Below, piece after piece: positions 493 to 9,367 of a stretch of DNA of 11,642 nucleotides. The DNA comes from a virus, in UHGV virus genome UHGV-0294613; one strand, given 5' to 3'. Position 1 is the stretch's first letter, and the number at the start of each line of letters is the position of its first letter. A program made the translations under genes and the position numbers. The notes under the pieces were generated by a model, which did no database searches, had not been told where the DNA came from, and worked only from the letters and a program-made list of their open reading frames with translations.

Positions 493-597
493 GACATACC
501 AATAACTCTTGTCTAAAAAGCCAGCAAGATAAACAGTCAGTATTCACGACCACCAGCGTGTTTACCGTACTGCACCAATGTTTAATTTATAAAAAAA
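458..597. repeat. Right arm of the perfect 140-bp inverted repeat
   Basis: Exact reverse complement of 1-140. Contains the RBS-like sequence and both candidate start codons (492, 468) of the minus-strand ORF 274..492; its terminal A7 (591-597) doubles as the U-tract of the minus-strand terminator. Confidence 0.9.
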
Positions 598-611
598 CCG
601 CGAGAACGCGG
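591..611 (-). terminator. Rho-independent terminator downstream of the 176-aa gene
   Basis: Minus-strand reading CCGCG-TTCT-CGCGG (598-611) followed immediately by T7 (591-597), 38 nt after the stop at 650. Confidence 0.65.
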
Positions 612-649
612 TAAGTATTGTTAAAAAACCAACAGTAATTTCACTCAAC

Positions 650-5129: not shown

Positions 5130-6071
5130 TCACCCCCTGAATCCTGCCGGGATCTGGCTGTAGTCCACGTTGTCGTAACTGGCTTTGAAGTACGGGTCTT
5201 CACGTTTTTCTGTGTGCGTGCTGACGGACGGCGATAAGCGCAGGGAAAGCTCATCCCATTTTTCCCGCAACTTCGACGGGCTGAGCACGTTACGGCACCA
5301 GAACGGATCGCGGCTGACGCGGCTGTACATCTCGCAGATTTGTTTGTGAGTACGACCATCCTGCACACACATCAGGCGAATTTCGTTTGCCCATGCTGTC
5401 CAGTTCGGTTCTTTGGGACGAACCACCTCGCCGTCACATTCGGCGGCCTGCTCGTACAGGGCAATGATTTTTTTCCAGAGCCACTGTGCGCAGGTCAAAT
5501 CATCCTGCGTTCCCCACTGGCGCTTTTTAGGGCTGAATACAACCGCATCAGGATGGCGAGTTAAAAAATCCTGTTCAGCCGTCTGCGTGTCCGGTTGCGA
5601 AGCGTCCGGACGAGAAGGTTTTTTATCTGACGGATCATGTTTTGATTTTACTGACGGATCCCCGCCAGATTCTGACGGGTGAAAACCCGCTTTTTTGCCA
5701 GATTTCGACGCATCAAATTTTGACGGGTCAGATTTTGATACGTCAGATTTTGACGGGTCAGAATCTGACAGTTGAGAAAATGCCGCTGCCTGAAGCTTCG
5801 CAACGTTAAGCTGATAAACATTCGACGCATTGCGGTTACCCTGGCGACGCGCCTTACGCGTTAACCAGCCTTCTGCTTCCAGCCGTGCGATAGCCGTTCT
5901 GACGGTACTCATCCCCGCGCCAATCTGGCGGGCAATGGTTTCAATTGATGGCCAGCACACACCTTCGTCATTACTGAAATCAGCCAAGCGGGCCATAATT
6001 GCCACGCTGGATAATTTCATGCCTGACGCTGCGCAACCATCCCATACATAGCCGGTTAATTTAGTGCTCAT
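5130..6071 (-). CDS. Replication initiator (lambda O-like), 313 aa, with internal iterons
   Basis: N-terminal winged-helix-like region (SSVAIMARLADFSNDEGVCWPSIETIARQIGAGMSTVRTAIARLEAEGWL), a low-complexity repeat segment (DPSKSDVSKSDPSKFDASKS) encoded by DNA iterons, and a separate C-terminal domain. Gene order cro - CII-position gene - this gene matches lambdoid replication modules. Confidence 0.7.
   Translation of the reverse strand: MSTKLTGYVWDGCAASGMKLSSVAIMARLADFSNDEGVCWPSIETIARQIGAGMSTVRTAIARLEAEGWLTRKARRQGNRNASNVYQLNVAKLQAAAFSQLSDSDPSKSDVSKSDPSKFDASKSGKKAGFHPSESGGDPSVKSKHDPSDKKPSRPDASQPDTQTAEQDFLTRHPDAVVFSPKKRQWGTQDDLTCAQWLWKKIIALYEQAAECDGEVVRPKEPNWTAWANEIRLMCVQDGRTHKQICEMYSRVSRDPFWCRNVLSPSKLREKWDELSLRLSPSVSTHTEKREDPYFKASYDNVDYSQIPAGFRG
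5624..5773. repeat. Origin-type iteron array inside the initiator gene
   Basis: About eight copies of a ~15-bp unit with core TGACGG(A/G)TCA (e.g. GATTTTGACGGGTCA, GATTTTGATACGTCA, GAATCTGACAGTTGA), the last four in strict 15-bp tandem at 5714-5773. Confidence 0.75.
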
Positions 6072-7010: not shown

Positions 7011-7211
7011 CTAATCTTTCGGATAGATATCCGGTCTTAAGTCAGATTTCGTAATTGCACCTGACGTGCATTGCTCAAGTTTTTTAGCCAGCACAAAACT
7101 GGCTTTTTTATAGCCATTGAAAACCAGCCGTAAGTAGCCAGGTGTTGAGCCAACTTTTCCGGCCAACTCGCCCTGCTGTTCTTTGGTTAAAGAGTCCCAA
7201 TACGCTTTCAT
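7011..7211 (-). CDS. cro: Cro-like small HTH repressor, 66 aa
   Basis: Translation MKAYWDSLTKEQQGELAGKVGSTPGYLRLVFNGYKKASFVLAKKLEQCTSGAITKSDLRPDIYPKD. Divergent from the CI gene across a 90-bp operator region; RBS GGAGG lies 10 nt upstream of ATG 7211. The longer track ORF (to 7514) is an antisense extension over cI and the operators. Confidence 0.75.
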   Translation of the reverse strand: MKAYWDSLTKEQQGELAGKVGSTPGYLRLVFNGYKKASFVLAKKLEQCTSGAITKSDLRPDIYPKD

Positions 7212-7301: not shown

Positions 7302-7976
7302 ATGAAAACAATCCATGACATCCGGCGGTCTAACGCCAGAAAACTGAGAGATGGTGTTGGCGGGAATTCTTCCTTTGCCACTATGATTGATCGCGAGCCA
7401 ACCCAGACCAGCAGGTTTATGGGAGATGGTGCTACTAAAAATATCGGTGACAGCATGGCACGACACATCGAAAAATGTTTCGACCTGCCTGTCGGATGGC
7501 TCGATCAAGAACACCAGACAACGAACATCACAAAAAAACCTGATGTTTCAATCACTAATAAACAAATCACATTAGTCCCTGTCATATCATGGGTACAGGC
7601 CGGAGCATGGAAAGAAGTTGGATATTCTGAGGTTGATTTGAGCACAGCAGAAACGTATCCCTGCCCTGTACCCTGTGGGGAAATGACTTATATCTTGCGG
7701 GTGATAGGTGATTCAATGATTGATGAGTACCGCCCGGGAGACATGATTTTTGTCGATCCTGAAGTACCTGCCTGCCACGGTGACGACGTTATTGCATTGA
7801 TGCACGATACAGGTGAAACCACCTTCAAAAGGTTGATAGAAGATGGGACACAGCGTTATCTCAAAGCGTTAAACCCAAACTGGCCTGAGCCTTACATTAA
7901 GATCAACGGTAATTGCTCTATAATTGGTACAGTGATTTTCTCAGGAAAACCAAGAAGATACAAAATCAAAGCCTAA
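7302..7976 (+). CDS. cI: CI-type prophage repressor (N-terminal HTH plus C-terminal LexA-like S24 autopeptidase), 224 aa
   Basis: C-terminal domain carries the GDSM serine motif and a downstream KRL lysine; an Ala-Gly pair (VQAG/AW) is a candidate RecA-stimulated cleavage site. Divergent from cro across palindromic operators. Confidence 0.85.
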   Translation: MKTIHDIRRSNARKLRDGVGGNSSFATMIDREPTQTSRFMGDGATKNIGDSMARHIEKCFDLPVGWLDQEHQTTNITKKPDVSITNKQITLVPVISWVQAGAWKEVGYSEVDLSTAETYPCPVPCGEMTYILRVIGDSMIDEYRPGDMIFVDPEVPACHGDDVIALMHDTGETTFKRLIEDGTQRYLKALNPNWPEPYIKINGNCSIIGTVIFSGKPRRYKIKA

Positions 7977-7989
7977 TCAATGTTTATGA

Positions 7990-8011
7990 ACCTGCTTCGG
8001 CAGGTTTTTTT
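7990..8011 (+). terminator. Rho-independent terminator after cI
   Basis: ACCTGC-TTCG-GCAGGT stem with a UUCG-type tetraloop (7990-8005), followed by T7 (8005-8011), 14 nt after the cI stop. Confidence 0.75.
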
Positions 8012-8015
8012 ATAC

Positions 8016-8048
8016 TTGACAATGTACCTTTGAGATACATAATGTACC
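8016..8048 (+). promoter_or_regulatory. PL-like early promoter with operator half-sites
   Basis: -35 TTGACA (8016-8021), 16-nt spacer, -10 CATAAT (8038-8043). Overlapping AATGTACC (8021-8028), GATACAT (8033-8039) and AATGTACC (8041-8048) carry the same TGTAC core as O1/O2. Confidence 0.55.
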
Positions 8049-8132
8049 CAAGCGAAACAACGAACAGGCAGGACGCCCACGAAGTAGCCGCCTGGGGCAT
8101 ATGAAGTCCAGGATGATTCGTTAGCAACAAAA

Positions 8133-8166
8133 AAGCGCCCTACAGGACGCTTAGCTCTTTAACAAT
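8133..8166 (+). promoter_or_regulatory. nut-like element: boxB-like hairpin plus rrn-type boxA
   Basis: Hairpin AAGCG-CCCTACAGGA-CGCTT (8133-8152) followed by GCTCTTTAACAAT (8154-8166), which matches the rRNA-operon boxA consensus TGCTCTTTAACAA; about 100 nt downstream of the PL-like start. Confidence 0.45.
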
Positions 8167-8210
8167 CTGGTCCCCATCAACAAGTAACTGATAACTTGAG
8201 GAGATGTGAA

Positions 8211-8417
8211 ATGCACAAAACAGAACCCAAAATCGTCGCGCCTGGCTACACAGATGAGGAAATTTATGAGTGGATGACAAAGAAGCTGGCAGCTATAAAC
8301 CAGCTTCGTGAAGTGCTGTCTTATCGACAGGAAACAATAGACTCCTTAAAAAAACTGGATCAGGAAATCACGGTTTTATCACAGGATGTTACTTTAGATA
8401 TTGTGCAGACAAATTAG
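8211..8417 (+). CDS. Hypothetical small acidic protein, 68 aa (first gene of the PL-like operon)
   Basis: ATG 8211 is preceded by GAGGAG with a 7-nt spacer (the track's 8196 start is a TTG). AT-rich. Its 3' end overlaps the convergent 144-aa gene by 29 nt. No Arg-rich motif, so not N-like. Confidence 0.55.
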   Translation: MHKTEPKIVAPGYTDEEIYEWMTKKLAAINQLREVLSYRQETIDSLKKLDQEITVLSQDVTLDIVQTN

Positions 8418-8823
8418 GATCCCATTCATTTTCGTCAAAATCATCAAAGTGATGAATTTGTGATCTCCAGTCTCGATAATCTAAAAATTTCTGGGCGGTT
8501 ACGCTTATTTTATCAAGTGTGAGTTCATCCTGAATTGAAAGAAGAAGTTCATCAAATTTCATCTCATTAATCTGTTTTGGCATCCAGTGATGCTTCATCA
8601 GAATAAGGTGAACCAGAGCCTTTTTCCCATTCAACTGATTATAGGGAGTGCCGAATTTCTTCCGGTGCTCATGTAAGACAAGGTCCAAAAGAGTAAGTAA
8701 TGTTGCCCTTGATTCAACTTTGCTTATTTCGACTGATGACACTACCCCACTGATTTCAATGCCCCGATACTTTCCAACATTTTCACAGTGGGATTTGTAC
8801 AGCGTATAGATATTACCGGACAT
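8389..8823 (-). CDS. Hypothetical protein, 144 aa, AT-rich, antisense to the PL-like operon
   Basis: Complete ORF; ATG 8823 is preceded by AAGGAAAAG. Convergent with and overlapping the 68-aa gene. No family recognised. Confidence 0.6.
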   Translation of the reverse strand: MSGNIYTLYKSHCENVGKYRGIEISGVVSSVEISKVESRATLLTLLDLVLHEHRKKFGTPYNQLNGKKALVHLILMKHHWMPKQINEMKFDELLLSIQDELTLDKISVTAQKFLDYRDWRSQIHHFDDFDENEWDPNLSAQYLK

Positions 8824-8838
8824 TTCTTTTCCTTTTGC

Positions 8839-8887
8839 GTTGTTGGGGATAACCAGATTAACCGAATCCTTGTTGTTGGGGAATAAC
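8839..8887. repeat. Direct repeats GTTGTTGGGGATAAC / GTTGTTGGGGAATAAC upstream of the 144-aa gene
   Basis: Copies at 8839-8853 and 8872-8887, spaced 33 bp start to start, lying 16-65 bp upstream of the minus-strand ATG at 8823. Confidence 0.6.
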
Positions 8888-9107
8888 TAGGTCCACCTCG
8901 CCTGATGTGGCTAAAAGCAGGCACATAACAGCTAAGTATTTTCAACCAGAGAGAATCCTTAGCGTTGTGGTGAATGCGGCTCAGCGCACGCGGGTTAAGG
9001 TTGAGGCTGACAGTCGACCTTCTGTGGATACCCACCCGCCTGGTGTGCAACCTTCGCCAGGCACCGGGAGGCACCCGGCACCACAACTTTATGCTGTGTG
9101 TAGTCTT

Positions 9108-9154
9108 GGCGGTACCAGCTTGTACCCTTGCTTCCGGCTGGTACCGTCCTTTTT
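9108..9154 (+). terminator. Strong stem-loop with U-tract (plus-strand terminator candidate)
   Basis: 12-bp stem 9108-9119/9137-9148 (CGGTACCAGC pairs GCTGGTACCG, plus G-C and G-U closing pairs), 17-nt loop, then CTTTTT (9149-9154). No U-tract on the minus strand. Confidence 0.5.
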
Positions 9155-9156
9155 AC

Positions 9157-9241
9157 AAAACAGAGAAGAGCATCACCGGACGACGGGCTCATAACCCAAT
9201 CCATCCGGGCGGCTGCCACCGCAGGTGTTCTTCTCTGTTTT
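9157..9241. other. Long-range stem (13 bp perfect, about 18 bp with wobbles) enclosing a 49-nt substructured loop
   Basis: AAAACAGAGAAGA (9157-9169) pairs with TCTTCTCTGTTTT (9229-9241); inner stem CCGGA (9176-9180)/TCCGG (9204-9208). A-tract and T-tract flank the stem as in bidirectional terminators. Lies in a GC-rich stretch with no credible ORF. Confidence 0.45.
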
Positions 9242-9367
9242 GTGGAGAAACTAACCGCCCCTACGGGGGCATTTATGGAAATGTAATTGACTCAATAATC
9301 GCCGGACGGTGAGGGCTTCCTTTTACCGGAATTCAGCGCGGTGCAGCGCATATACGTGGAGAACAAA

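Follow-up and report, generated by a model that had tools for sequence, protein, structure and literature searches.

How can a lambdoid prophage carry its early left transcript as far as xis and int, past strong stem-loops, when no N-like gene is visible? The question is raised by 34 bases, 8133-8166, in a stretch of 11,642 nt from the virus genome UHGV-0294613; this whole stretch is called the window here. The initial annotation, made from the sequence alone, read these bases as a ribosomal-type boxA with a boxB-like hairpin, and proposed that the PL transcript passes the stem-loops at 9108-9241 either with host Nus factors alone or by an RNA-based mechanism, as at the HK022 put sites. The reading that we favor, with slightly better than even confidence, is that the 34 bases form a two-strand junction module, in which the boxA would load Nus factors independently of N and protect against Rho, and that the intrinsic terminator downstream would be passed with the help of a separate leader RNA.

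As a lambdoid prophage, the window is of the SfV/SfIV/e14 type. It is inserted at thrW beside proA, and 1.5 kb of it is 100% identical to E. coli CP016404. The PR operon is on the minus strand and extends as far as a Q-type antiterminator (PF03589, 1335-2114). The gene for this antiterminator is followed by a clean intrinsic terminator (597-612, minus strand; ACCGCGTTCTCGCGGT then T7), which sits where a late-operon tR'-type terminator would be. Within a replication-initiator-like gene (5130-6071, minus strand), 5-6 repeats of 15 nt (CAGATTTTGACGGGT) at 5651-5773 look like origin iterons and account for a spurious Rfam match to mir-5880. On the plus strand, PL is followed by the leader, an ORF of 68 aa and then some 950 nt in which no plus-strand gene is credible, before yfdR, xis and int are reached. 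The region where this operon starts has the following features.

7302-7976, plus strand: LexA-like cI repressor gene, ymfK-type, with Peptidase_S24 (Pfam)
7988-8012, plus strand: intrinsic terminator 3' of the cI-like gene, stem 7988-8007 and then a T run
8016-8043, plus strand: strong PL-type early leftward promoter, TTGACA-16-CATAAT, 11/12 match
8023-8039, plus strand: operator palindrome TGTACCTTTGAGATACA within the PL spacer, of the form TGTACC-N5-GRTACA

The site equivalent to 7988-8012 carries a terminator annotation in SfV, and a promoter is found at the same post-cI position in 9 other phages. The TGTACC-N5-GRTACA palindrome occurs twice more in the cI-cro intergenic region, and the operator motif has 7 matches in the window against 0.07 expected. 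Since the palindrome of the PL spacer recurs between cI and the cro-type gene, PL would be under operator control, which supports its assignment as a repressor-controlled promoter. The boxA lies about 105 nt 3' of this operator-bearing promoter on the same strand, and the placement of the element downstream of PL in the initial annotation was thus correct.

The 34 bases combine parts of two elements that face opposite strands.

8123-8152, minus strand: predicted intrinsic terminator of the convergent cargo gene, hairpin from 8152 to 8133 and then UUUUUUGUUG
8154-8166, plus strand: boxA GCUCUUUAACAAU of the rrn consensus, where NusB/NusE are predicted to load on the PL transcript, from the consensus match and the identity to rrnB

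The boxA reads GCTCTTTAACAA at 8154-8165, followed by T at 8166, so that the full 13-mer is GCTCTTTAACAAT. The experimentally derived functional boxA consensus is GYTCTTTAANA (PMC5725501). Its sole match in the window is GCTCTTTAACA at 8154-8164, where shuffles expect 0.04. The leader of E. coli K-12 rrnB reads GCCGCUGAGAAAAAGCGAAGCGGC-ACU-GCUCUUUAACAAU. The 13-mer is therefore identical in the prophage and the rrnB leader (rrn form UGCUCUUUAACAA), and both have the same order of a hairpin, 3 nt and boxA. Lambda nutL reads CGCTCTTAAAAATTAA-GCCCTGAAGAAGGGC, a weaker boxA followed by boxB, and its boxA CGCTCTTAAAAA deviates from the consensus. With the rrnB identity on one side and the deviation of nutL on the other, the initial view that this boxA fits the ribosomal operon better than lambda nut is borne out. 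The Kd of NusB is 130 nM for the rrn boxA and 2200 nM for the nutL boxA, a difference of about 17-fold (PMC2800207); such tight binding by an rrn-type boxA is as expected for N-independent loading. In the predicted fold of the predicted transcript, the boxA at 8154-8166 is unpaired.

Relatives of the element were gathered in three ways: from the boxA side, from the hairpin side, and with one genome per species. Variation in the boxA was scored only in the hairpin-side relatives, where the search pattern left the boxA free. The changes fall mainly on the preceding base (A, C or U) and on position 10 (C or A), which is the N of GYTCTTTAANA. The sole change in the boxA core is C2>A in one copy, and the bases past position 12 drift freely. 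A second boxA was not found on the PR side, the 2-mismatch match at 7184-7195 (minus strand) inside the cro-type gene being at chance level. The supplementary list for E. coli in Baniulyte 2017 contains a prophage cII-proximal boxA along with unnamed hypotheticals, without follow-up (PMC5725501). Neither N nor nut is a subject of the SfIV paper.

That a hairpin precedes the boxA, as first described, is clear at 8133-8152. It consists of GCGCCC-UACA-GGACGC at 8135-8150 with two A-U pairs extending it to 8133-8152, and it ends 3 nt 5' of the boxA. On the plus strand, where UUAGCUCUUU comes after it, it contains a C.A mismatch and its folding energy reaches only -7.5 kcal/mol. On the minus strand, the C.A becomes U.G, which gives 8 contiguous pairs and -12.1 kcal/mol, followed by U6; the sequence reads AAGCGUCC-UGUA-GGGCGCUU, then UUUUGUUGCU. 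The stem and the A6/U6 tract are constant across relatives, whereas the loop is almost free (UACA, CGUA, CGAU, CAAA, AUAA, UACU, CGCU, GAUU and others). A variable loop on a constant stem is the opposite of the pattern of an N-binding boxB. The term "boxB-like" in the initial annotation does not fit a hairpin whose loop is not conserved, which lies 5' of boxA and which folds better on the opposite strand. As to a lambda-type nut, no comparable hairpin was found 3' of the boxA, nor is there a conserved GNRA-like loop.

The minus strand also provides the transcript to be terminated. A minus-strand ORF has its stop 2-223 nt past the boxA in 33 of 36 distinct viral contexts among the matches listed, and in 24/24 enterobacterial species genomes. 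These antisense ORFs are at least 80 aa long, mostly 140-220 aa, and belong to at least 7 unrelated families; in the window, the stop codon of the cargo gene is 223 nt away. The better minus-strand fold, the U6 tract and the co-oriented gene upstream identify the hairpin as the probable cargo-gene terminator; it is, at the least, a predicted intrinsic terminator of convergent cargo genes inside the PL leader. The asymmetry of the modeled folds should halt minus-strand transcripts and not PL transcripts. As far as sequence can tell, the flagged feature is real, above chance and composite, with a minus-strand terminator and an rrn-type boxA as its parts.

The composite recurs as a module of about 45 nt, made up of A6, the hairpin, 2-3 nt, boxA and then usually UCUGG. 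Of 5,426 complete E. coli genomes, 747 carry it unannotated, and among the Enterobacterales it occurs in about 15 genera. Among the matches listed, its distance from a preceding cI-type gene on the same strand is 177-350 nt in every case. At least 5 different leader types precede it. Its place is always a PL leader, and what follows directly is a stretch that PL transcription has to cross without translation. SfV and e14 have the promoter and leader of the window without the module; the Klebsiella phage Kp4882-1 has only the module in common with the window. As judged by these comparisons, the module is a portable mosaic unit with boundaries of its own. In an unselected sample of leader-bearing loci, boxA is present in 12/68, and the first gene is antisense in 9 of the 12 loci with boxA versus 9 of the 56 without it (Fisher p = 1.4e-4), although the loci are related and many are near-identical prophages, so that neither the counts nor the p value represent independent events. 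Relatives such as SfV, e14 and ST64B have no boxA, yet a long untranslated leader or an antisense gene is still present in some of them, and so the boxA is not a requirement. In a comparison with related prophages of the kind that the initial annotation had proposed, the boxA looks genuine and conserved, with a fitting place and orientation.

Beyond the boxA, the PL transcript meets the following features.

8211-8417, plus strand: first ORF of the PL operon, 68 aa, PHROG 1744, acidic (pI 4.8) with 2 Arg
8389-8823, minus strand: convergent cargo gene of the ECs1072 family, PHROG 5286, 144 aa, which the PL transcript crosses antisense and untranslated
8934-9157, plus strand: STnc100-like prophage sRNA region, Rfam 43.4 bits, E = 8e-7, for a gathering score of 47
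9108-9155, plus strand: strong intrinsic terminator at the 3' end of the STnc100-like RNA, stem 9108-9148 and U5 9151-9155
9150-9250, no strand assigned: very long near-symmetric hairpin of 101 nt, -51 kcal/mol on the plus strand and -46 on the minus strand

The 68-aa ORF runs toward the ECs1072-family gene, with 29 nt common to both, and a pair with about 40% identity is found in the diverged relatives L035 and L248; the two may be a two-gene unit. More generally, 140-220-aa minus-strand genes occupy the cargo slot of the PL leader (8389-8900, minus strand). They come from at least 7 families without relation to one another; 2TM-like membrane proteins, a zinc-ribbon coiled-coil family and an LprI-like lipoprotein are among them. 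Searches of the cargo genes in Pfam and PADLOC gave nothing significant. The slot may be a prophage defense or exclusion hotspot. Its flanks are conserved: upstream, repeated CCCCAACAAC motifs at about 8832-8880 are common to different cargo genes, and the module lies downstream.

Then, does the boxA act on the PL transcript at all? The module could be just the 3' UTR and terminator of the cargo, kept by descent and used as a homology flank for cargo swaps, with a boxA that has no function on the PL transcript. The slot, with conserved sequence on both sides of widely varying cargo genes, is what such a history would leave; the hairpin is clearly optimized for the minus strand, the boxA is dispensable in SfV and e14, and descent as a recombination flank of the slot could conserve a module this short. 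What this explanation leaves out is the boxA itself. A 13-mer identical to rrn, in the PL sense and at the rrn spacing from a hairpin, is improbable by chance. Substitutions spare the core of the boxA; they strike the single base before the boxA, those that follow it, and the consensus N. Moreover, a terminator needs no specific 12-nt sequence 5' of its stem. We consider the absence of any boxA function unlikely.

If the two-strand junction module does act on the PL transcript, against what would it act? A stretch of about 950 nt (8418-9367) is untranslated on the plus strand, and its base composition shows no obvious C-rich, G-poor tract for Rho loading except at about 8700-8799. The stem-loops that the initial annotation placed at 9108-9241 were found, as the terminator 9108-9155 and as the 101-nt hairpin. 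The terminator has a 13-bp stem with -25.6 kcal/mol and z = -5. The arms of the long hairpin are ACAAAACAGAGAAGA and UCUUCUCUGUUUUGU, and its center is conserved in the otherwise unrelated lambdoid phages LLS, Flotzy, Eeyore, Klebsiella Kp4866-6 and Salmonella F1055. STnc100 has been linked to PasD sRNAs (preprint 10.64898/2026.05.13.724894). With a strong plus-strand terminator between PL and xis/int, some antitermination is needed.

Known systems with a boxA suggest which part of this task it could take on. The rrn leader site (boxB hairpin-boxA-boxC; NusB/E/A/G, SuhB, S4) resembles the prophage site in the 13-nt boxA, in the hairpin 3 nt upstream, in working without a phage protein and in the long untranslated RNA downstream. 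It differs in that the prophage site has no boxC-like UGUGUGGG afterwards and that the prophage hairpin has no sequence relation to that of rrn and also serves the opposite strand as a terminator. The prophage site also lies in an early operon, behind another structured RNA. The boxA of CRISPR arrays and of suhB is similar in being a stand-alone match to GYTCTTTAANA without N. At CRISPR arrays, it shields untranslated RNA from Rho free of N (Stringer 2020, PMC7665894), and in the suhB 5' UTR it modulates the downstream gene (Baniulyte 2017, PMC5725501). The prophage copy is instead in the PL operon, fused to the terminator of a convergent gene in a mobile mosaic module. By analogy with rRNA operons and CRISPR arrays, we infer that the boxA would block Rho on the PL transcript.

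The intrinsic terminator at 9108-9155 would then call for something else, and a candidate lies 12-100 nt upstream of the flagged coordinates.

8060-8121, plus strand: conserved structured leader RNA of 62 nt, candidate cis-acting antiterminator, from covariation

In this RNA, an enclosing helix P1 pairs 8060-8064 with 8117-8121, and an internal helix P2 pairs 8091-8095 with 8108-8112, with an AUGA junction at 8113-8116. The core of 25 nt (8066-8090) is near-invariant, a conservation that is partly imposed, as the scan demanded 22 of the 25 core bases; in the relatives found by BLAST or selected by boxA, the core has rare single changes only. Across the 120 distinct variants among the matches listed, 97.4% of cells are paired and 9/10 variable pairs have double changes. 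The covariation score is 0.60, whereas shuffles give 0.17 and slid controls no more than 0.13, and RNAalifold independently recovers P1 and P2. The RNA is found in phages of 7-8 genera (Escherichia, Shigella, Salmonella, Klebsiella, Citrobacter, Pantoea, Yersinia and Pectobacterium). Among 5,426 complete E. coli genomes, at least 1,492 (at least 27%) have it. It is always the first thing transcribed from the post-cI promoter and begins about 10 nt into the transcript. It is single-copy and confined to the PL side, no second copy having been found on the PR side. Rfam 15 does not contain it, the region 8000-8260 giving only weak minus-strand matches to the terminator hairpin, and a full-text literature search with the core sequence returned no paper. 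The family is so far undescribed in searchable sources.

Variants of the leader were seen at several other loci. E. coli K-12 e14 (L323 6110-6180, minus strand) has the same PL promoter and a leader variant with P2 CCCGGU/ACCGGG, directly upstream of ymfJ; this leader is unannotated and without the boxA module. At L243, about 1380-1470, the leader has diverged much further: its core is different, but the enclosing stem and the GGAGGAUUCGC 3' end are retained. It precedes a terminator-boxA module with UGCUCUUUAACAA. The L243 leader suggests that the family is broader than the exact-core scan shows. A second conserved sequence of the PL leader, AACG.GCG..AGGU..AAACGUUCCGCUGGCC.GCG, follows the leader RNA by about 70-130 nt in SEN34, mEp237 and SPN3UB (L009, L010, L011). 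In Kp4882-1-type phages, this second sequence follows the promoter on its own and immediately precedes the terminator-boxA module (L012 2440-2500; L248; L268).

The leader RNA occupies the position of HK022 putL and lambda nutL, and it shares with the put sites of HK022 and HK639 a size of 60-70 nt and a start within about 10 nt of the PL start. As with HK639 put, it occurs once, on the PL side only, in phages without N. In sequence and by covariance model, however, it has no similarity to putL or putR. The put sites consist of two side-by-side stem-loops with a triplex (cryo-EM, PMC9378689), whereas the leader RNA has an enclosing P1, an internal P2 and a 25-nt core. HK022 put works in cis through the beta' zinc-binding domain of RNA polymerase, so as to suppress pausing and termination. 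Homology with put was considered and rejected: the strings CGAAC.GG and CAGGAUGA are shared, but they are placed in different structural parts, in the top of stem I and the loop of stem II in put, and in P1 and the P2 arm with the junction here. A BLAST search with putL matches only the group of HK022, HK75, O276, phiEt88 and HK639 and not the leader-bearing phages, and the leader covariance model gives no score on HK022 or HK639 put. Rfam has no put family and is therefore uninformative on put.

The antiterminator reading of the leader comes from its position, its size, its restriction to the PL side, its N-less hosts and a core that is kept across host genera while the neighboring phage genes vary. 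The conservation of the core across host genera suggests a host target. The most economical hypothesis, to which we give a little less than even confidence, is that the leader RNA would be a put-like antiterminator directed at the host polymerase. The RNA-based mechanism of the initial annotation is hence plausible, although its candidate is at 8060-8121, outside the flagged bases, and is not a homolog of put.

The other route in that annotation has the boxA and host Nus factors alone as a processive antiterminator that carries polymerase through 9108-9241 to xis/int. A consensus boxA does lie between PL and the terminators, and N is absent. It is also true that antitermination is needed to pass 9108-9155, so that this part of the proposal stands. 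However, rrn-type complexes with Nus factors only act mainly against Rho-dependent termination and are poor at passing strong intrinsic terminators. A Nus-only complex is therefore unlikely to pass the terminator at 9108-9155. Furthermore, SfV and ST64B keep the leader RNA and the downstream terminator region without a boxA, and only about 12 of the 68 loci in the sample have a boxA behind the leader. Passage by Nus factors alone appears quite improbable to us, and by analogy the leader RNA is more likely than the boxA complex to be the processive antiterminator.

A regulatory role like that in suhB was also weighed, in which the Nus complex at the boxA would occlude the RBS of the 68-aa ORF 46 nt downstream and promote Rho termination as a form of attenuation. 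The distance of the boxA from the start codon is below 50 nt, the criterion used for such sites (PMC5725501), and the 68-aa ORF and the ECs1072-family gene co-occur convergently in L035 and L248. Elsewhere there is mostly no plus-strand ORF after the boxA, and the antisense stop is just 2-25 nt away. With most contexts lacking such an ORF, a role on the 68-aa ORF cannot explain the conservation of the module, and we regard this reading as highly improbable.

The initial annotation had seen no N-like gene in the window, and our searches agree. No N-like protein was found in the window by Pfam or PHROGs. The sole match in a six-frame scan of the window for Arg-rich motifs was a minus-strand ORF at 8742-9086. 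It was rejected as a hidden N: it has no codon periodicity (variable columns 30/26/26), it is antisense to the STnc100-like RNA, and its C-terminus shifts with the context. The first gene of the operon is, as described earlier, acidic and without an Arg-rich motif. Phages with the module or the leader have no Arg-rich ORF in common, and nothing of the kind is shared among 10 related phages. The site does resemble the nut sites of lambda and P22 in its PL-proximal leader position, in having a boxA and in the purpose of reaching the distal xis/int, but the order is reversed with the hairpin 5' of boxA, the loop is unconserved, no N gene is present, and the boxA is of the strong rrn type where that of lambda is a weak variant. 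N proteins are small and fast-diverging enough to be missed by a homology search, but a classical nut site with its hairpin bound by an unrecognized N-like protein is extremely improbable with a loop that differs among otherwise identical modules, a hairpin on the wrong side of boxA, no Arg-rich ORF common to the module- or leader-bearing phages, and neighboring genes that change from phage to phage.

The two-strand junction module would work as follows. On the minus strand, the hairpin and U6 would stop the transcript of the ECs1072-family cargo gene before it reaches PL and the cI region. On the plus strand, PL transcripts would pass the hairpin, because the C.A mismatch weakens the fold and no U tract follows, and would then expose the boxA 3 nt later. 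Without N, the boxA would bring NusB/NusE to RNA polymerase, and these would in turn recruit NusA, NusG and SuhB. Polymerase loaded in this way would be Rho-resistant over the 950 nt or so at 8418-9367, first where the transcript is antisense to the cargo gene and then in the sRNA region. Passing the terminator at 9108-9155 toward xis/int would more probably be the work of the leader RNA at 8060-8121.

A widespread family of lambdoid prophages, including e14 of K-12, thus has an unannotated covarying RNA at the place of nutL and putL. Through e14, the early antitermination of N-less lambdoid phages becomes directly testable in E. coli K-12. We put forward, as a tentative proposal, that the N-less lambdoid prophages of Enterobacterales may run their early left operon by two protein-independent RNA signals, one being the leader as a new class of antiterminator and the other a ribosomal boxA built into antisense cargo terminators, which would avert Rho polarity. 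If this is true, it would be the first phage boxA that works in the host way without N, and it would explain how prophages tolerate cargo and defense genes antisense in an essential early operon.
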